From assembly GCA_028686425.1 (NCBI GenBank), contig JAQUBZ010000001.1, positions 50,536-114,535 on the forward strand: a DNA stretch of 64,000 bases. Reading direction: 5' to 3'. This DNA comes from Bacteroidales bacterium (GTDB lineage Bacteria > Bacteroidota > Bacteroidia > Bacteroidales > UBA932). This document shows positions 9,526 to 18,552 of this stretch, piece after piece. Position numbers and translations under genes: made by a program. The notes under the pieces were generated by a model. It had not been told where the DNA came from. It worked only from the letters and a program-made list of their open reading frames with translations, and did no database searches. Within the stretch, counting starts at the first letter, position 1. Each line of letters begins with the position of its first letter.

Positions 9526-10671
9526 ATGATAAGAAAATCTTCTCTTCTACTCTCCTTTTTCCTAATGCTTTCCGTTACGGCCTGCACAAGCGACCCGACT
9601 GCAAAGTTTGAAAAAGAAATGGATACCTTCCTGAAAGATATTCAAAATGTCGGCATGGGTGTTGCCGTTGTCAAAGACAATCAGGTTATATACAACCACT
9701 CCTTCGGAGTCAAAAACCTTGATACCCAAGAGGCTGTAACAAATGAAACACTATTCAGAATAGCCTCCATCTCCAAATCATTTTCAGCCACATCAATGAT
9801 GCAGCTTCGCGAACAGGGGCTTGTATCGCTCGATACGGACGTCAGCGAACTTATGGGATTTCCTATCAGAAACCCGAAATATCCCGAAACAGTCATCACT
9901 CTTGCCATGCTGATGTCCCACACTTCAAGCCTTAACGACAATGAAGGATATTTTACCCTTGATGTCATCAATCCTGCCACCAATCCCAACTGGGCCAACT
10001 GCTACAACGATTACGAACCCGGCAAAGGTTACGAATATTGCAATCTCAACTTCAACATGACGGGAACTTTCATCGAAAAGCTTTCAGGTGAAAGATTTGA
10101 CCAATACGTCAAACACCACGTACTCGACCCTCTCGGTCTATACGGCGGTTATTGTGTAGATTCGCTTGACACTTCACGTTTCGCCACACTTTACGAATAC
10201 AACAACAAGGCAGACTCTCTTGAAGCTTGTCCCGAAGCATACGCACCGAGATCCGAACAGATCAGGAACTACACCATGGGATACTCCACTCCTGTATTTT
10301 CTCCGACAGGAGGGATGAAGATTTCAGCTCTCGACCTCGCAAAATACATGATGATGCACATGAATTACGGAACTTCCCCTGATGGTGTCAGGATTATTTC
10401 AGAAGAGAGCTCAAAGATAATGCAGACCCCTCTTTCAGATCCGGAACACTACGGAATGGCTTTGTGGGTAACCGATGAATATACTCCGGGAATCAAACTT
10501 GTCGGACATACGGGAGGTGCTTACGGCCTAAGAAGCGCAATGTTTTTCAATCCTGCGGAAAAATACGGATTTGTTGTCATCAGCAACGGTTCAAAAGATG
10601 TTGCAAGTGACGGCAAGACCGATATTCTGACAGGTCCAATCCAATTAATGTATAAATACTTTGTCAAATAA
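9526..10671 (+). CDS. serine hydrolase (beta-lactamase/PBP4* family) lipoprotein
   Basis: 381 aa with a lipoprotein signal (SVTAC), the SxxK motif SISKSF, and a YxN-like motif. Fits the class C beta-lactamase-related fold. Confidence 0.8.
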   Translation: MIRKSSLLLSFFLMLSVTACTSDPTAKFEKEMDTFLKDIQNVGMGVAVVKDNQVIYNHSFGVKNLDTQEAVTNETLFRIASISKSFSATSMMQLREQGLVSLDTDVSELMGFPIRNPKYPETVITLAMLMSHTSSLNDNEGYFTLDVINPATNPNWANCYNDYEPGKGYEYCNLNFNMTGTFIEKLSGERFDQYVKHHVLDPLGLYGGYCVDSLDTSRFATLYEYNNKADSLEACPEAYAPRSEQIRNYTMGYSTPVFSPTGGMKISALDLAKYMMMHMNYGTSPDGVRIISEESSKIMQTPLSDPEHYGMALWVTDEYTPGIKLVGHTGGAYGLRSAMFFNPAEKYGFVVISNGSKDVASDGKTDILTGPIQLMYKYFVK

Positions 10672-11968
10672 CAGAAACATAAAGCAAGTGCGTCCCAAGA
10701 AACGCCACTACGATAACCAGCCTGATGAAGGTTTCCAACGTGATGGCTTCGATGATTACAATCGCGACGGCAACCGTGGCAGCAATTGCAACGGTGATAA
10801 TGACCATTTCTGTTTTGGCGGTGACCGCAATGAAAATCGTGATGATGATTACTCTGTAAACGGCTGCGGTCGAAGTGAAGGTTACATTGGTAATTTTTCA
10901 AAGGTGCGTCCCAAGAAGAACTTGGGACAGCACTTTTTGACAGATCAGGCGATTGCCGGCAAGATTGTCGATTCCTTACAGTCAGACGGCAACGTCCTTG
11001 AAATAGGCCCCGGCATGGGAGTACTCACACAGTACCTCCTCCAAAAAGACAACATTTTACTGAAGGTCATTGAAATAGATACCGAATCCGTCCAATACCT
11101 TCTGGAACATTTTCCGAAGCTCGCTCCAAACCTTTATGAAGCAGACTTCCTTAAAATGGATTTATCCAAACTATTTTCAGGACACCATGCAAAACAATCT
11201 GACAATAACGACAGCAATACCAACCGCCCCGCCACCACCGATGACGACAACAGTATCTCAACTTTTGCTTCCGCTAATCATACCGTAGCTACAAACAATG
11301 ACATCGTTTCGGCCATAGATGACGCCAACGCCGACAATGCCACGACTGCAGATTATGATGACAGTATAATGCAATCAGCAGGGCAGCCGGATACAACCAA
11401 ACCATTTTCAGACAATACCCTTGACTCACTCAACGCTGACAGTTACATCAACGCCGGCATTTCTGAAACAGCACTGTCCGGAAATACATCCAAACAATTT
11501 TCAGTAATAGGAAACTTTCCATACAACATCTCCTCCCAGATTTTCTTCAAGATTCTCGACTACATTGACAGCGTGCCGGAAATTGTCTGCATGCTGCAAA
11601 AAGAAGTTGCAGAACGCCTTGCAGCCCCTCCGGGAAGCAAAACTTACGGCATCCTTTCCGTGTTGCTCCAGACGTGGTATGACATCGAATATCTCTTTAC
11701 AGTCGGAGAAGGCTCTTTCCTTCCACCACCAAAAGTCAAATCAGCCGTGATAAGACTCAAACGCAACAACCGTACTCAACTTGGCTGTGACAGTGACCTG
11801 TTCAAACGCATCATCAAGACCACTTTTAATCAGCGCCGCAAGACCATACGCAATTCCATCAAACCCCTTCAGCTTGAACTACCTCCCGACACACCATTCC
11901 TCGACAAACGCCCCGAACAACTATCCGTAGAAGACTTCATCCTCCTGAGTCAGACACTCCAAGCATAA
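10661..11968 (+). CDS. rsmA: 16S rRNA (adenine1518/1519-N6)-dimethyltransferase RsmA/KsgA carrying two in-frame insertions
   Basis: KsgA motifs VRPKKNLGQHFL, EIGPGMGVLT, IGNFPYNISSQIFFK and PPKVKSAV. No ATG start is available. Candidate starts are TTG 10661, GTG 10688 and GTG 10904. At 435 aa it is about 170 aa longer than typical KsgA. Confidence 0.85.
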   Translation: MSNNRNIKQVRPKKRHYDNQPDEGFQRDGFDDYNRDGNRGSNCNGDNDHFCFGGDRNENRDDDYSVNGCGRSEGYIGNFSKVRPKKNLGQHFLTDQAIAGKIVDSLQSDGNVLEIGPGMGVLTQYLLQKDNILLKVIEIDTESVQYLLEHFPKLAPNLYEADFLKMDLSKLFSGHHAKQSDNNDSNTNRPATTDDDNSISTFASANHTVATNNDIVSAIDDANADNATTADYDDSIMQSAGQPDTTKPFSDNTLDSLNADSYINAGISETALSGNTSKQFSVIGNFPYNISSQIFFKILDYIDSVPEIVCMLQKEVAERLAAPPGSKTYGILSVLLQTWYDIEYLFTVGEGSFLPPPKVKSAVIRLKRNNRTQLGCDSDLFKRIIKTTFNQRRKTIRNSIKPLQLELPPDTPFLDKRPEQLSVEDFILLSQTLQA

Positions 11969-11970
11969 CA

Positions 11971-12006
11971 TATTACCAATCCCACGACTATTACCAATCC
12001 CACGAC
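11971..12006 (+). repeat. 18-bp tandem direct repeat x2 (TATTACCAATCCCACGAC)
   Basis: Two adjacent exact copies lie immediately after the rsmA stop. Confidence 0.9.
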
Positions 12007-12037
12007 ATCACAACATCACAAACGGCGTATCTTACGA

Positions 12038-12096
12038 CATACTGCGATGTATTTTACGGCATACTGCGATGTATCTTCACGCATACTGCGATGTAT
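12038..12096 (+). repeat. 22-bp-period tandem repeat x3 (core CATACTGCGATGTAT)
   Basis: The core starts at 12038, 12060 and 12082. Confidence 0.9.
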
Positions 12097-12226
12097 CTCC
12101 CGTCCAGAATATACATCCGAGCAGCAACACAAACCAATCCATCACGGAACATCACCGGAGCCGCCATCCCCGAAACCATTACAAGGACTTCCGTCACGGA
12201 ACATCACCGGAGCCTTTCACCCCGAC

Positions 12227-12264
12227 CACCCTGTGGCAATCAGACCCTTGAAAGCCACGGGGTG
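12227..12264 (-). repeat. REP-like hairpin repeat, inverted orientation relative to the other copies
   Basis: CACCCTGTGGC-N16-GCCACGGGGTG, an 11-bp stem with one G-T pair. It is followed by the reverse complement of the conserved spacer. Confidence 0.85.
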
Positions 12265-12331
12265 GAAAGTGGCAAAAATACAATCGCGGCCAGACATACG
12301 CCAGAGGCATCATCGCTGAAGCAAGCGATTT

Positions 12332-12369
12332 CACCCTGTGGTGATCATAGCCTCGAAAGCCACGGGATG
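12332..12369 (-). repeat. REP-like hairpin repeat, degenerate copy
   Basis: CACCCTGTGGT-N16-GCCACGGGATG, about 105 nt after the previous copy. Confidence 0.7.
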
Positions 12370-12649
12370 GCAATACGTCATCGCGGAGACGCTTCTCCCC
12401 GTAAAGCCAATCCCTCCCAGACACACATCAAAGCCATCAACAGACACTATTATTACAATCACTCTCGGACCATTTGGATACAGCCCCAACAGCAACCTAC
12501 AGCTGCAATCACTGAAATACATTGCAAATGGACCCGGATTTCTACGCCGAAGTTTTGTGCAATAAGTTTCTGATTCTTGTTGTCACATAGGGCTTTTGTG
12601 GGTTTGTGCACCTTGTGATTATTCGTTGCATACACTGACAACTGCTTAT

Positions 12650-14314
12650 TTACCAATATTTTACCTGAAGAATTATTGGCAAGTGGTCACTGACACCACC
12701 GTTATACCGAGGACCGATATGAGTACGAAAAGGCTTGAACCCGAGATATGTCTTATCTTTTTCAGTAATGTATTCATTTTTGTAAATATCCATGTTGCAA
12801 TACGGCCTCATATTTTCAGAGACTAAAAATTGATCGATCAGCTCCCAGATGCCTCTGTACCTGATGGAACCTTCTCCATTTTCAGCTATTTCGACCGCAA
12901 GATTATTAAGGGGGACATTTTGCAGGGCTTCTCCGTCCGGGGTATCATTAAAGTCCCCCATCACGATTATCCCTTGACGAGAAGCAGGTATTGTCTGATA
13001 ATCAGCCACTTTGCCAAAAATATGATTGTCAGAACAAATGATCCGATCTGCCTTAGCAATAGAATCGATTTTCATTTTCAGAGTATTTGATGCAGACATC
13101 CTTTTGCCTGATGAAGCTTCTGTCCCGCTTATTTTTGAAGGCCAATGATTTACGAAGATGTGCAGTGTGTCCCCCGATTGCATGAAGTGTGTAGCTCCTG
13201 TTTCAGGATGGCTTTGCGATTTGTGAGAATGACTTTGCGACTGGTGAGGATTATTTTCAGAGATGGATAATGTGTCCGAAGTGGAATATTTTTCAGAGGT
13301 GGAAGGCGAGCCCGTAGAAGTGAGTTGGTCAGAGGCTGAAGGCGAGCCCGTAGAAGTGAGTTTGCCGGAGACTGGAAGTGTGCCCGTAGAAGTGAGTTGG
13401 TCAGAGGCTGAAGGCGAGCCCGTAGAAGTGAGTTTGCCGGAGACTGGAAGTGTGCCCGTAGAAGTGAGTTTGCCGGAGACTGATAGTGTGCCGTCTGGAG
13501 ACAGAAGTATTCCTTTCACGTATAGAATATCACGAGTAGTTGTCTCCGGGATTGTCACAGGTATGGCCTCTACTGTCAGCACTCTGAATCGGTCTTTTCT
13601 ATATAGCATGGCCACATCTATGCCTCGTTTGTCCGGGCTGTCGCGGTGCACAATCGAATAATTGAGCCTGTACAAAGGCGTTTCCTTCAATAGTTGATTG
13701 AGAACAAATCTGTTTTCGACCTCGGCAAATCCGATAATTATCGGGAAATCACCATATTGCTGTGATATTGAAATAATTGTCTTGGCAATGCTGTTACGTT
13801 TACGAATAAACTTTTTCCAACTCCAATGATATTTGCCGCCATAAGAGAAGTCCTCATCATCAGTGAGTTCGTCATTGAAAGGATCAAAATAATTCTCAAG
13901 ATTCCAAAACATCATCGTAGCCTTTGTGCCGGATTTCTCCTCATGGCTTTCCTCTTTGCTGCTTTCCACCCCGTGGCTTTCAAGGGTCTGATTGCCACAG
14001 GGTGAAATCGATGAAGTCGTTAGCTTCAGCGATGATGCCTCCGGCGTGTGTCTGTGCGGGATTGGATTTTTGCAGGTGTCCACCCCGTGGCTTTCGAGGG
14101 TCTGATTGCCACAGGGTGAAGTCGCTGGCTTCAGCGATGATGTCTCCGGCGTGTGTCTGCGCGGGATTGGATTTTTGCTGCTGTCCACCCCGTGGCTTTC
14201 GAGGGTCTGATTGCCACAGGGTGAAGTCGCTGGAGACGATGGAGACATGTATATCTGAATATTTGTCGAAAGCAGCCATACAAATGCTACAAAGATTATA
14301 TATAGATTTTTCAT
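12650..14314 (-). CDS. endonuclease/exonuclease/phosphatase (EEP) family protein with repeat-derived insertions
   Basis: EEP motifs (MFWNLENYFDPF, FAEVEN, IFVNHWPSK, MGDFND, GGVSDHLPI). The signal-peptide-like start MKNLYIIFVAFVWLL is at 14314. An alternative start, MMFWNL, is at 13915. Confidence 0.75.
   Translation of the reverse strand: MKNLYIIFVAFVWLLSTNIQIYMSPSSPATSPCGNQTLESHGVDSSKNPIPRRHTPETSSLKPATSPCGNQTLESHGVDTCKNPIPHRHTPEASSLKLTTSSISPCGNQTLESHGVESSKEESHEEKSGTKATMMFWNLENYFDPFNDELTDDEDFSYGGKYHWSWKKFIRKRNSIAKTIISISQQYGDFPIIIGFAEVENRFVLNQLLKETPLYRLNYSIVHRDSPDKRGIDVAMLYRKDRFRVLTVEAIPVTIPETTTRDILYVKGILLSPDGTLSVSGKLTSTGTLPVSGKLTSTGSPSASDQLTSTGTLPVSGKLTSTGSPSASDQLTSTGSPSTSEKYSTSDTLSISENNPHQSQSHSHKSQSHPETGATHFMQSGDTLHIFVNHWPSKISGTEASSGKRMSASNTLKMKIDSIAKADRIICSDNHIFGKVADYQTIPASRQGIIVMGDFNDTPDGEALQNVPLNNLAVEIAENGEGSIRYRGIWELIDQFLVSENMRPYCNMDIYKNEYITEKDKTYLGFKPFRTHIGPRYNGGVSDHLPIILQVKYW
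13293..13490 (+). repeat. 36-bp tandem repeat array (two alternating unit types, about 5.5 units) inside the EEP gene
   Basis: Units start at 13311, 13347, 13383, 13419 and 13455. Each begins CCCGTAGAAGTGAGTT. They are in frame (12 aa each). Confidence 0.9.
13966..14224 (+). repeat. three tandem REP-like units (hairpins at 13966-14005, 14080-14119, 14185-14224)
   Basis: Each unit is CCACCCCGTGGCTTTC(A/G)AGGGTCTGATTGCCACAGGGTGA plus the conserved spacer ..CCTCCGGCGTGTGTCTG(T/C)GCGGGATTGGATTTTTGC... Unit lengths are 114 and 105 nt. Confidence 0.9.
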
Positions 14315-14324
14315 AGTCGTGGAT

Positions 14325-15272
14325 TTACATTGCAAGACAACGTTTGATTTGTCGATCTTTAATATGAAACATACTTTTCAGTTCTTTGGCAGCAGATTGC
14401 TTCTCTTCAAGAGTCAATTGCGTATAAGCTTTTTTGCGAAACCGAGGAACTATCTTATTATCAATGTATTCGCAAATAACCATATCGTCATGTTCTATTG
14501 GTTTGAAATGACCGCGTTCATTGGAAAGCAATTCCGAAATATTATAACGACGTTTATTTTCAATGGTTTCTAAAGTTATAGGAGGCAATATCTCATGAAA
14601 AGGAAGAGTATCTTTTTCCTGTTCTCGAGACCACTCTTCATCCGACACCCTATTTAAATGATATAGAAAACGCCTCGCAGTTGTGAAATAATTTTCAGCT
14701 ATTACTATTTCAACGAAAGACTCTGGAAGAATAATACCCTGCGGAGTCAATTTATAATGCGAAGGAATCTTTCCATTTTGAGGCAAATAGTTTCTTGGAA
14801 TACGCCTGCAAGTCTCTGGTAATAAGTCTTGTTGTTTAATGCCTAAGATATCTTTAACATGTAAATCTTTTGTAAAATAACAATTGATTGATGAAAAAGG
14901 ATATGCAAATGAAGTGGTACATACACCATGATGAATGGGATTTCTTAAAATATAACTTGCAACGGCTGTGGCATGGTGCACTCCAACAATAGTGTTACAA
15001 AAAATCTTTTTTTCACCAAGTCTTCCTTTCCTAAAATATCTACTATTGAAGTGTTTGGTAACACTAAGTCTGAAAACTTTCATAAAAGCAGATGGATTAT
15101 CGCTAAGTAACATCAGATGAATATGATCAGACATTAATGCGTAACAAATCAATTTAGAATTAGTGGCATAAAGTGATAATGCCAGACTATTCCGGGCAAA
15201 AAGATAATCATTTGAATCCCTGAAAAGGACTTCATTATGAGATGAATAGCAAATGTGAAATAATTCTGTCAT
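14325..15272 (-). CDS. IS200/IS605-like Y1 (HUH) transposase, RAYT-type, with a C-terminal extension
   Basis: 315 aa with an ATG start. HUH motif in SDHIHLML (H50-I-H52) and a catalytic-Tyr motif SYILRNPIHHG (Y107), at the spacing expected of Y1 transposases. Flanked by palindromic repeats. Confidence 0.7.
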   Translation of the reverse strand: MTELFHICYSSHNEVLFRDSNDYLFARNSLALSLYATNSKLICYALMSDHIHLMLLSDNPSAFMKVFRLSVTKHFNSRYFRKGRLGEKKIFCNTIVGVHHATAVASYILRNPIHHGVCTTSFAYPFSSINCYFTKDLHVKDILGIKQQDLLPETCRRIPRNYLPQNGKIPSHYKLTPQGIILPESFVEIVIAENYFTTARRFLYHLNRVSDEEWSREQEKDTLPFHEILPPITLETIENKRRYNISELLSNERGHFKPIEHDDMVICEYIDNKIVPRFRKKAYTQLTLEEKQSAAKELKSMFHIKDRQIKRCLAM

Positions 15273-15398: not shown

Positions 15399-15540
15399 CA
15401 CATCGTGGCTTTCTACCCCTTGATTGCCACGAAGTGGATTGGTTGGCTTCGGAGAGGATGCCTCCGGCGTGTGTCTGTGCGGGATTGTATTTTTGCCCCC
15501 TCCACATCGTGGCTTTCTACCCCCTGATTGCCACGAAGTG
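15399..15540 (+). repeat. two REP-like units, sequence variant (hairpins at 15399-15438 and 15502-15540)
   Basis: CACATCGTGGC-TTTCTACCCC(T/C)TGATT-GCCACGAAGTG, with the same spacer (CCTCCGGCGTGTGTCTGTGCGGGATTGTATTTTTGC) between the two units. Confidence 0.85.
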
Positions 15541-15549
15541 AATTAAAAA

Positions 15550-15623
15550 GCTATCGTAACAGGAGCGACGAAGCCATCATCAGAATATCATTATCACGGC
15601 TATCGTAACAGGAGCGACGAAGC
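15550..15623 (+). repeat. perfect 25-bp direct repeat (GCTATCGTAACAGGAGCGACGAAGC) spaced 49 bp apart, spanning the SNF transporter stop codon
   Basis: Copies at 15550-15574 (just beyond the stop) and 15599-15623 (within the last codons of the gene). Confidence 0.95.
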
Positions 15624-16938
15624 GTATTATAAAGAAGACCGTTTCAAGCAGCCATTGCGGAATCTTGAGCGTTCCGTGGTTGGTCAATTCGTCAAAGGCA
15701 GCCGTTTTGCCAAGTCTCCATCCTACAAAAATCACTATCAGCAATCCCCCTATCGGCATCAGGACATTGGAGGAAACATAGTCAAACAAATCAAAAATAT
15801 TCATTCCGAATAGTTTGACACCGCTCATTGCCCCTTGAGACAACGAACAGAAACATCCGAGCAAAAGAATTATTCCAAAAGCAATGGCCACAGCCCCGCC
15901 TCTTTTCATCTTAAACTCTTCAATCAGGTAAGAGACAAACACTTCAAGCAGTGAAATGGATGATGTCAGAGCGGCAAGCAGCAATGTTACAAAAAACAGT
16001 ATTGCGATTACACCTCCAAGCGGTAGAGAGGCAAAGATTCTCGGTAAAGTTATAAATACAAGGCCAGGACCTTCTCCCGGACTGATTCCAAAAGCAAATA
16101 CCGCCGGCATAATTGCACATCCTGCAATGATTGCAAAAAGAGTGTCCGCAATAGACGTATAGGCCGAACACTTCATTATATTTTCATCCTTGCTCACATA
16201 CGAGCCATAAGTCATTATCGTGCCACATCCCAATGAAAGCGAAAAAAATGCCTGTCCGAGCGCAGCGAGAAAAGTTCCGGATGTAACTTTCGAAAAATCA
16301 GGCTTGAACATATACGATACCCCTGCTCCGGCGCCCTCAAGTGTCAGAGAGCGTATAGCAATTATAATCACCATTACAAACAACATCGGCATCATCATTT
16401 TGGTATATTTTTCTATACCTTTCTTGATTCCTGCCAGCACCACAAATGCAGTAAGAGCCATAAAAGCAAGGTGATACAACAAAGGTTTGACGGGTGACGA
16501 GACAAAATCGCTGAACATTGTCGCATGATTGGCTTCACTTCCCGCCCTCGTAAAATCGAACAAAACCGCTTTTACCAGATATTCTATCGACCATCCTCCC
16601 ACAACACTGTAAAACGACAATATGCAGATGGATGCCAGCACTCCGAAAATTCCGATTATCCCCCATTTTGAGCCGGGAGCGAGAACGCGAAATGCCCCGA
16701 ACACATTGGACTGGCTCCTCCTTCCGAGGATAAATTCTGAAAACATAATCGGAAGGCACAGCACGAAAACAAATACAAGGTAAATAATGATAAATGCCGC
16801 CCCTCCGTTTTCCCCCATCAAATATGGGAACCTCCATAAATTGCCAAGCCCTATCGCCGAACCGGCCATGGCCACAAGTACTCCGAACCTGCTGCCGAAA
16901 TTGTCGCGTGAAGAGACTTCTATGTTGTTAGTTTTCAT
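15580..16938 (-). CDS. sodium-dependent transporter (neurotransmitter:sodium symporter/SNF family)
   Basis: 452 aa, multi-TM, with the NSS signature GLGNLWRFPYL near the N-terminus. The ATG start overlaps the folA 3' end by 11 nt. Confidence 0.9.
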   Translation of the reverse strand: MKTNNIEVSSRDNFGSRFGVLVAMAGSAIGLGNLWRFPYLMGENGGAAFIIIYLVFVFVLCLPIMFSEFILGRRSQSNVFGAFRVLAPGSKWGIIGIFGVLASICILSFYSVVGGWSIEYLVKAVLFDFTRAGSEANHATMFSDFVSSPVKPLLYHLAFMALTAFVVLAGIKKGIEKYTKMMMPMLFVMVIIIAIRSLTLEGAGAGVSYMFKPDFSKVTSGTFLAALGQAFFSLSLGCGTIMTYGSYVSKDENIMKCSAYTSIADTLFAIIAGCAIMPAVFAFGISPGEGPGLVFITLPRIFASLPLGGVIAILFFVTLLLAALTSSISLLEVFVSYLIEEFKMKRGGAVAIAFGIILLLGCFCSLSQGAMSGVKLFGMNIFDLFDYVSSNVLMPIGGLLIVIFVGWRLGKTAAFDELTNHGTLKIPQWLLETVFFIIRFVAPVTIAVIMIF

Positions 16939-17761
16939 TGGTTAAGTATTGTATGAACTGAAAATCGAAATTGGTCTTTGTGTCGTGAAACACTTCACTT
17001 TCCCAGATTATCCTCCATTTTGAGGAGTCTATCTTTGGAAAATATGTATCTGCGTCATCTATTATAGTCTTGACGGAGGTTATGTAGAGACGATACGCTC
17101 CGGGCATGGTCTGCCGGTAAATTTCACCGCCGCCGATGACAAAGATTTCGTCACGGGAAGCCATTTTCAGGGCCTCTTCAATAGAAGGAGCAACCATTGT
17201 GACCGTAGCAGCTGCTCCGGCAGCAGCGCCGACAGCAGCCCCACCCCCAACACTTCCCCCGACACAAACAGCAACATCCCCGGCAGCAGCGCCGACAGCA
17301 TCCACGGACCCCCGGACAACACTCCCGGCAACAACCCCGACAGCAGCCCCACCCCCGACACTTCCACCGACACAAACAGCAACATCCCCGGCAGCAGCGC
17401 CAACAGCAGCCACGGACCCCCGGACAACACTCCCGGCAACATCCTCGACAGCAGCCCCGACAGCAGCCCCGCCCCCGACACTTCCCCCGACACTTCCACT
17501 GGCCACGACATCACTCCCAACTGCAGCAAAGGCAGCCTTCTCCACGGTCAGGCTGCGGCTGACAATAATATTTTCACGAAGTGGTAAAGGCTTGCAACCC
17601 AACGACTCCCATGTGTGCCGCCCCATAATGACAGTTCCATTTTTAGTAAGCTTCTTAAAATATTTCAGGTCCGCAGAAATATGCCAAGGCATCCGGTTCC
17701 CACGACCGATCGCCATATTTTCAGAAGTGGCAACTATCAATGAATATCTCTTGCTTGTCAT
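16928..17761 (-). CDS. folA: dihydrofolate reductase with a ~115-aa Gly/Ala/Val-rich repeat insertion
   Basis: DHFR motifs ([47 protein letters not shown]). The ATG at 17759-17761 overlaps the thyA stop (ATGA), suggesting translational coupling. Confidence 0.85.
17233..17500 (+). repeat. 108-bp GC-rich tandem repeat (about 2.5 units) inside folA
   Basis: CAGCAGCCCC(A/G)CCCCC... recurs at 17233, 17341 and 17449. The period is 108 bp (36 codons). It is C-rich on the + strand and has no stops in several frames. Confidence 0.9.
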
Positions 17762-18552
17762 ACGGCAATGGGGGCCTTTATTCCCGGCCACGGGTTATAA
17801 TTTGTTAGCGTAAAATCCTCATATTCAAATGAATATATGTCTTTTTTATCCAGATTGATCGTCATTTGCGGAAGAGACCTCACTTCTCTCGAAAGTTGTG
17901 TTTCCACCTGCTGAAAATGGTTCAGATAGATGTGTGCATCTCCCAGAGTATGAACGAAATCGCCCAACTCATATCCACACACCTGTGCAATCATTTGTGT
18001 AAGAAGAGCATACGAGGCAATATTGAACGGCACTCCTAAAAATACATCGGCACTTCTCTGATAGAGCTGGCAGGAGAGGCGTCCGTCCGCAACATAAAAC
18101 TGAAACAGGCAGTGGCACGGAGGAAGGGCCATGGAATCGATTTCTGCCACATTCCAAGCGGAAATGATGTGTCTGCGCGAATCGGGATTGCGTTTGAGTT
18201 GATCAATAAGATTGGTCAGCTGATCTATTGTACCTCCGTCCGGCGCAGGCCAGCTTCTCCATTGATGTCCATAGACCGGACCAAGCTCTCCTCCGGCATC
18301 AGCCCACTCGTCCCAGATGGTCACTCCGTGATCATTGAGATATTTAATATTGGTACTCCCGGAAATAAACCACAGCAATTCGTAAATAATTGACTTCAAA
18401 TGGACTTTCTTGGTGGTCAGAAGCGGAAACCCTTCGTTGAGATTAAAACGCATCTGATAGCCGAAAATGCTCTTTGTTCCGACTCCCGTGCGGTCACTCT
18501 TGACCACACCATTATCCATTATATGTTGAAGAAGATCTAAATATTGTTTCAT
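17758..18552 (-). CDS. thyA: thymidylate synthase
   Basis: 264 aa. [15 protein letters not shown], the active site ALPPCH, and a canonical ThyA length. Confidence 0.97.

Follow-up and report, generated by a model that had tools for sequence, protein, structure and literature searches.

The window analysed here, a 64,000-nt stretch of contig JAQUBZ010000001.1 (assembly GCA_028686425.1), comes from an uncultured Bacteroidales species known from herbivore-gut and fermenter metagenomes, whose nearest named relative is Candidatus Cacconaster equi. At position 10688..11968 of the forward strand it bears an open reading frame (ORF) for the 16S rRNA methyltransferase RsmA/KsgA, encoding a 426 aa protein from the GTG start at 10688 given in the ORF list; the frame is also open from a TTG at 10661 (435 aa), and a GTG at 10904 is a third candidate start. 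KsgA proteins of solved structure have about 255 aa, and the window protein differs from them by a 104-residue loop placed before strand beta4 and by a 72-residue N-terminal tail, both of which are missing from the solved structures (1QYR, 3TQS, 7O5H) and from all of the 108 orthologues compared. The loop (HHAKQSDNND...SGNTSK) is encoded at 11183..11494 (+) by an insert whose boundaries, set by MAFFT alignment with the 108 relatives, are good to about one codon. The initial annotation had reported a domain-sized in-frame insertion at this place, and it is indeed found intact in the window and in seven further contigs, but its size, previously given as 108 codons (324 bp), is reduced by the orthologue alignment to 104 codons. 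The true gain is thus 312 nt, since the ancestral loop accounts for everything up to ...DLSKLFSG on the left and from (Q)FSVIGN onward on the right.

Judging from its sequence and predicted structure, the gene is an RsmA/KsgA that has kept every family-defining motif and the KsgA fold. Profile search matched the product with PF00398 (RrnaAD; E-value = 1.6e-48, 165.5 bits against a cutoff of 24) and with the TIGR00755 equivalog (240 bits, cutoff 171), each match being broken into two stretches by the insert. As in several congeners the gene lies downstream of a beta-lactamase-like gene, and it is present as a single copy in the assembly (2.2 Mb genome, 92% complete). The SAM (S-adenosylmethionine)-binding motif I, VLEIGPGMGVLT, is intact at 10994..11029 (+; residues 103-114), and in an alignment of 54 sequences (the window protein with 53 homologues) its columns V103, L104, E105, G107, P108, G109, G111, V112, L113 and T114 are invariant, like E129-I-D131 of motif II and D153-F-L of motif III. 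Motif IV, GNFPY, with the catalytic N-x-P-Y, is likewise intact at 11510..11524 (+; residues 275-279, at the C-terminal end of beta4); G275-Y279 are invariant in the same alignment, and strand 272-276 of the AlphaFold2 (AF2) model runs straight into N-F-P-Y. The C-terminal domain harbors the basic patch NQRRKTIRN, whose R383, R384 and K385 are also invariant; the patch falls on the RRK segment when aligned with KsgA chains of solved structure, and corresponds to R221/R222/K223 of Escherichia coli KsgA, which contact rRNA (PMC8216452). The core of the model shows the expected strand and helix order of the two-domain fold (Rossmann-like plus helical C-terminal) with a predicted local distance difference test (pLDDT) above 90, and Foldseek superposed it on 3tqs, 1qyr and 7o5h with template modelling (TM) scores of 0.86, 0.82 and 0.81, respectively.

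The insert itself is of low complexity. Five residues, D (16), A (14), S (14), N (14) and T (13), make up 68% of its 104 positions, and with 17 D/E against 3 K/R its net charge is about -14. Its rsmA frame is free of stops while the other five frames contain 3-11, and only 0.9% of nucleotide shuffles of the insert stay open (P = 0.009), so that the D/N/T/S/A-rich, stop-free character noted earlier is borne out by both composition and frame analysis. The genome, formerly called AT-rich, has a G+C content of 41.6% and the insert one of 47.8%. The codon log-likelihood is positive in the rsmA frame only, third-position usage at 4-fold sites resembles that of the rsmA core, and the codon usage of the insert is native; from its sequence, the insert is probably translated as part of the enzyme. 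No Pfam domain, including any intein, was detected in it, no Rfam family or intron matched it at E-values up to 1, its RNA fold was no more stable than expected (z = 0.09), and no inverted repeats were found at its ends. The structural modelling proposed in the initial annotation was carried out and gave, next to the well-folded core, pLDDT values below 50 for residues 167-266, which belong to the insert, as well as for residues 1-69. The insert is accordingly best described as an acidic, low-complexity loop that is predicted to be disordered.

The insert sits between the helix that follows beta3 and strand beta4 of the Rossmann domain and, in the AF2 fold, enters at the N-terminal end of beta4. 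Its earlier placement in the catalytic core, next to the substrate-binding motif, therefore holds along the sequence but not in the fold. In the topology of class-I methyltransferases the N-terminal end of beta4 lies at the edge of the sheet opposite the SAM/adenine and substrate pocket, and the loop would thus leave the fold on the side facing away from the SAM/adenine pocket. The insertion point maps to about residues 103-106 of E. coli KsgA, while the 30S contacts reported for that enzyme are N117, F124, Q141, R147, K155, R159, R221-N227 and R248 (PMC8216452); it thus appears to lie away from the residues that contact h24, h27 and h45. Given this position, together with the retained motifs and fold, the enzyme presumably still dimethylates A1518/A1519 of 16S rRNA.

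The distribution of the insert was studied in 108 Bacteroidota orthologues, comprising the 23 of 24 sampled congeners that have rsmA and six other Bacteroidales families (whole genomes), and loci from a GTDB-wide scan of rsmA, of which the best 80 were taken. All 108 share one loop length, ADFLK-x-DL-x-KLF-[PS]-G-x-F-[AS]-[VI]-IGNFPY, and lack the 104-codon insert (23 congeners and about 85 other Bacteroidota); the closest insert-free protein is 80% identical (P0002, of congener G010). The insert peptide had no match in 1.84e9 representative proteins, and its sole match in a metagenome contig collection was a contig of the same species; no insert-free allele with more than 90% core identity was present among 5.8 billion clustered proteins. 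Within its own genome no second copy was found at the DNA or peptide level, as blastn returned the self-match only and the other blastn-short and tblastn matches were at chance level. An ancient, conserved, lineage-specific domain, raised earlier as an alternative, is not what these comparisons reveal, and by the sequences compared the loop is a gain of one species only. The 90%-identity protein cluster of the window RsmA holds five distinct sequences. Seven further contigs, from seven samples and four assembly sources (ENA, NCBI, Logan, JGI), carry the insert with its frame intact, so that the comparison across strains comprises eight sequences and three haplotypes, in all of which the insert is present at constant length. 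The samples that gave the seven contigs have the accessions SRR13001969, SRR1561989, SRR10947789, SRR22315502, ERZ4240422, ERZ724023 and JGI 3300014203. Its single-nucleotide polymorphisms (SNPs) are 4 synonymous and 3 non-synonymous, giving a pN/pS (non-synonymous to synonymous polymorphism ratio) of about 0.22 (one-sided binomial p = 0.049, eight sequences), at a SNP density about 3x that of the rsmA core. Between one contig (L032) and the window there are 7 differences downstream of 10904 (10904-11968), 6 in the 312-nt insert and 1 in the 750-nt core, with 1 more in the 1544 nt upstream, a clustering that suggests that the insert region is locally hypermutable or recombines.

Insertions in RsmA are less unusual than was at first assumed. 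In at least 8 of the 24 congeners other loops of RsmA are enlarged by inserts of 9-55 aa, and in five rumen metagenome-assembled genomes (MAGs) the very same loop has 11-13 extra residues, indicating that RsmA loops are permissive in this group; the window insert is the largest among the compared sequences. Larger inserts of relatives (45-59 aa) are located after helix A in three MAGs, two of which are congeners (L014, 1219-1371; L023, 1207-1371; L019, 1237-1371) and before beta3 in RUG200 (L039, 2229-2405); none of these four is flanked by direct repeats. The inserts of L014 and L023 share LRSD(K/E)K(V/I)LA(S/T) peptide units that resemble a translated repeat element.

The insert of the window is bounded by direct repeats. 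The first copy, TCCAAACTATTTTCAG (S K L F S G; 11165..11180, +), is made up of codons of the ancestral loop, at the point where the short helix following beta3 ends and where relatives read DL[SA]KLF[SP]G (e.g., TCC AAA CTC TTC GCG GGA in L017), and the last copy, TCCAAACAATTTTCAG (S K Q F S V; 11489..11504, +), has as its 3' half TTTTCAG, the ancestral start of beta4 (FSVIGN). These two 16-mers were already reported in the initial annotation, and both their coordinates and their frame were verified: they match at 15/16 positions and are spaced by 324 nt (108 codons) in the frame of ORF 10661/10688..11968. Chance is a poor explanation, as any 15/16 direct repeat arises in 1% of codon-shuffled versions of rsmA. 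Besides this pair a further copy, ACCAAACCATTTTCAG (T K P F S D), is located inside the insert at 11396..11411 (+) and matches the last one at 19/21 positions (11391-11411 against 11484-11504). With flanks, the three pairwise matches are 19/21, 16/17 and 19/23, with scores of 32, 29 and 26 against a maximum of 29 over 200 shuffles. It had also been proposed that removing one repeat and the intervening DNA restores the usual spacing; this leaves a loop 4 residues shorter than in 108/108 relatives, and such a reconstruction is consequently not the ancestral state.

Compared with the remaining genome by blastn, the insert gave one outlier, which is a candidate source for the stretch around its internal repeat copy. 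The 32-nt stretch at 11395..11426 (+), i.e., the second repeat copy and 16 nt downstream, matches C34:138366-138396 of G000 at 29/32 positions with 1 gap (E-value = 3e-4). The match scores 45, while shuffles have a mean of 33.7 (sd 2.3, max 43) and 0/150 reach 45; control segments of the rsmA core score 35-36 in the same donor search. The matched locus lies within an AccI-family type II restriction endonuclease gene (C34:137902-138999; PF09545, E-value = 1.5e-203), 76.7 kb downstream of rsmA and outside the window, which is intact and has 87% identity with its nearest homologue. AccI homologues conserve the matched segment, MQIRTKQFSEIAL, which is therefore native at the AccI locus, and the similarity crosses a 1-nt frameshift, meaning that it exists at the DNA level. 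After a 16-nt gap, an upstream ATGCAA(A)TCAG block is also common to the insert and the AccI gene. The AccI 16-mer ACCAAACAATTTTCAG resembles the rsmA motif at 14-15/16 positions, the native loop codons at 14/16 and the native beta4 start (TTTTCAG-AATAG) at 12/13. As for CCAAACNATTTTCAG, the genome has four exact copies, three in rsmA and the remaining one in the AccI gene, and a role of the repeat motif as a genome-wide recombination site was rejected on the grounds of this low number.

Taken together, the insert DNA may have arisen locally, by copying that was illegitimate and guided by microhomology, with subsequent low-complexity drift. Three versions of the native loop codons (TCCAAAC-N-ATTTTCAG) are now present in rsmA, and the stretch around the second copy would have been copied from the similar 16-mer context of the AccI gene, by template switching or ectopic repair, so that the direct repeats would be partly native codons and partly the donor's version of the motif. 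The copies of native codons and the AccI-like stretch argue for repeats that are junction scars and donor copies rather than ends of a mobile element. On this reading AccI would have supplied at least part of the insert, through template switching guided by microhomology. In this the insert resembles the templated (filler) insertions that arise during replication or repair, with junctions at 14-16 nt of microhomology, a 32-nt stretch matching an ectopic locus on the same replicon, and a similarity that persists across a frameshift, as DNA copying predicts.

A second event with the same signature, this time a perfect 14-nt repeat, would have added the strain-variable N-terminal tail. The extension of 72 codons (10688..10917, +) is bracketed by GTGCGTCCCAAGAA at 10688-10701 and 10904-10917; the copies are 216 nt apart and both read VRPKK. 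A 14/14 repeat arises in 0.7% of codon shuffles, and the open frame of the extension has P = 0.012. The extension is D/N/G/R-rich with 87% NNY codons, and relatives do not have it, as they start with M..VRPKKxLGQHFL. In L032, 163 nt of the extension are replaced by 19 nt, resulting in an in-frame tail of 24 codons with a 17-nt repeat (CAAGTGCGTCCCAAGAA). Search for a donor of the extension in the genome gave none (p = 0.35). A 126-aa ORF is also open across the extension on the opposite strand (10521-10901, -), which is most likely a side effect of the NNY/RNY-like codons of the extension and not a gene.

Pfam domains are also interrupted in two other genes within 7 kb of the insert, folA and an EEP (endonuclease/exonuclease/phosphatase) gene, by repeat inserts that are in frame and exceed 100 aa. 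The domain of folA (16931-17791, -), which encodes dihydrofolate reductase (DHFR), is split by about 115 aa in which G, A, V and S abound and which are built from a 108-nt tandem repeat (repeats at 17204-17505), giving a protein of 287 aa, while DHFR usually has about 160 aa. The EEP gene (Exo_endo_phos_3 nuclease/phosphatase; 12653-14335, -) has three units resembling repetitive extragenic palindromes (REPs) that are read through at its N-terminus (SPCGNQTLESHGV x3), and its domain also holds an insert with a 36-nt repeat period (13260-13475); strains differ in product length, L034 having 551 aa and L035 492 aa against 561 aa in the window. The exact folA and EEP protein sequences were absent from the protein clusters, probably owing to differing called starts. 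Directly after the rsmA stop there are tandem repeats, perfect 18-nt x2 and 22-nt x3, followed by hairpin arrays (11971-12400, 13967-14227, 15399-15544). The hairpin unit after rsmA, of about 105 nt (CACCCTGTGGC...GCCACGGGGTG), also brackets a gene resembling RAYT (REP-associated tyrosine transposase) at 14325-15272, with a weak Y1_Tnp match (E-value = 9e-4). Finally, perfect 25-nt direct repeats stand on both sides of the stop of an SNF-family transporter gene (15550-15623, -). The coding copy with the next 24 nt gives ...RFVAPVTIAVIMIF*, resembling the C-terminus of relatives (...RFIAPTAILIIMIAQYLS), so the distal, post-stop copy beside the REP hairpin looks like the duplicate. Of about 1720 long ORFs in the genome, 45 contain low-complexity segments with few hydrophobic residues, and flanking direct repeats are not a general feature of such segments (32 internal segments compared with 300 controls).

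These data are probably best explained by an active enzyme that tolerates the disordered loop as a near-neutral passenger, on which purifying selection is weak at most. Several observations weigh against this view or against the origin proposed with it. Extension of the AccI alignment with lenient gaps was no better than with random genome chunks, and a candidate donor is at hand for only 32/312 nt (about 10%), which sets the insert apart from known templated insertions, as does its age, too great for the rest to be traced. Between the motif copies lie sequences that resemble neither one another nor the gene flanks: comparisons of the insert with the 5' and 3' flanks and the N-terminal extension gave p-values of 0.05-0.8, and those around the three motif copies 0.25-0.99. 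Such unrelated sequences are not what a simple tandem duplication with later divergence would leave, and duplication of a 324-nt unit was rejected, as the insert is similar neither to the flanks nor to the N-terminal extension, nor are the sequences beside the motif copies similar to one another. Tandem Repeats Finder (TRF) detected no tandem repeats inside rsmA at a minimum score of 30. Its constant length among strains is also unlike that of slippage-driven low-complexity regions, and the selection signal comes from 7 SNPs. Concerning the ribosome, a cryo-EM study places h24 along the 'backside' of KsgA, and in KsgA-30S structures loop1 (KK-LGQ motif) contacts h24 and gates SAM entry (bioRxiv 10.1101/2021.09.15.460497). 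On this account the loop may clash with or contact the 30S subunit, or affect 30S binding.

The same structures bear on the reading that the acidic loop and the acidic N-terminal tail are functional, i.e., polyanionic, RNA-mimicking tethers kept by selection, which would tune binding to the 30S platform or release from it, or would prevent subunits from joining prematurely. This, the main alternative, we consider rather unlikely. The strong negative charge of the insert, its fixation without length change in eight sequences and the low pN/pS would all agree with such a role, and the loop1 motif of the window RsmA (VRPKKxLGQ) directly follows the N-terminal tail. On the other hand, the insert is missing from every congener and has no homologue, so that its function would be brand new, its composition is typical of drifting low-complexity sequence and its SNPs are about three times as dense as those of the core. 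The N-terminal tail also differs greatly between strains, and the presence of similar-size inserts in the unrelated neighbours folA and EEP indicates a mutational rather than an adaptive cause.

The lineage could have an unusually active microhomology-primed template switching (here from AccI) that writes in-frame DNA into housekeeping genes and leaves repeats of 14-25 nt as scars, a proposal that we regard as unlikely. If true, a local or genome-wide peculiarity of repair or replication would lie behind both the 7-kb cluster of events around the RAYT/REP locus (EEP, folA, the SNF transporter tail and the two in rsmA) and MnmG, further along, and bacteria would have in it a way of making disordered protein segments de novo.

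Inactivation of rsmA by the loop and the 72-residue tail, making it a young pseudogene caught before the appearance of stops, seems quite improbable. RsmA had been called essential in the initial annotation, whereas ksgA is dispensable in E. coli according to textbook knowledge; this, and a small 2.2 Mb genome with many altered housekeeping genes, would be compatible with loss. The gene nevertheless retains all invariant family residues, shows few core substitutions and has a confidently modelled core (pLDDT above 90). At contig level its frame is free of the frameshifts or stops of a pseudogene in three haplotypes (eight sequences), and the chance of an open insert frame is as low as the shuffles indicate.

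An even poorer account is that of a small mobile or selfish element (miniature inverted-repeat transposable element, REP or Rickettsia palindromic element (RPE), intron, intein) which generated a 16-bp target-site duplication and is read through. What makes it worth considering is the direct repeat that bounds the insert, along with a RAYT-like transposase and REP arrays 1-4 kb away and the REP units lying in frame in the EEP gene. The insert is, however, single-copy at both DNA and peptide level, has neither terminal inverted repeats nor a hairpin (RNA fold z of 0.09), matches no Rfam intron, intein or Pfam domain in a region that is predicted to be disordered, and is dissimilar to the local REP unit. 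Moreover, the supposed duplication takes in ancestral loop codons on both sides and has three copies, and the repeat lengths of the two rsmA events (14 versus 16-23 nt) differ, unlike those expected of a single transposase, which renders this origin very improbable. A contig that is chimeric or wrongly joined, through assembly or binning, is conceivable for a MAG but scarcely credible given that the same insert, with point differences only, occurs in seven independently assembled contigs (seven samples, different pipelines) besides the window.

The tolerated loop can be compared with the inserts of other systems. Like the Asn/Asp-rich low-complexity inserts of Plasmodium falciparum (PMC5762703) and the low-complexity regions (LCRs) of prokaryotes (bioRxiv 10.1101/2022.09.23.509281), it has a D/N/S/T bias, occupies a surface loop of a conserved enzyme, is lineage-specific and evolves faster than its host domain, and several housekeeping genes are affected. 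Gain and loss of prokaryotic LCRs have been attributed to short-repeat dynamics (bioRxiv 10.1101/2022.09.23.509281), while the window insert has no tandem structure by TRF and no length polymorphism in the eight sequences, the N-terminal tail being the part that varies (24 versus 72 codons). It further differs from LCRs as it is bounded by 16-23-nt copies of native loop codons and holds a stretch that matches another gene. With the palindromic elements of Rickettsia and with intragenic REPs it shares the addition of in-frame DNA that is read as a flexible loop on the surface of a housekeeping enzyme left intact, a situation also seen in the neighbouring EEP gene where REP units are read through; unlike these elements and the local REP unit, the rsmA insert is neither palindromic nor repeated in the genome.

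The rsmA of the window is hence an unusual allele of a known enzyme and not a new system. Its loop implies that the beta3-beta4 loop of the Rossmann domain, in a universally conserved ribosome-maturation enzyme, accepts a domain-sized disordered segment, and the position could be of use in engineering, for example to take up tags or other insertions in KsgA/Dim1/Erm-type enzymes. It also provides a dated, strain-resolved case of a bacterial housekeeping protein gaining intrinsically disordered sequence. The AccI match, if confirmed, would be a rare traceable ectopic templated patch in a bacterial coding gene and, together with folA, the EEP gene and the N-terminus of rsmA, the loop makes this uncultured gut lineage suited to studying the dynamics of in-frame insertion.

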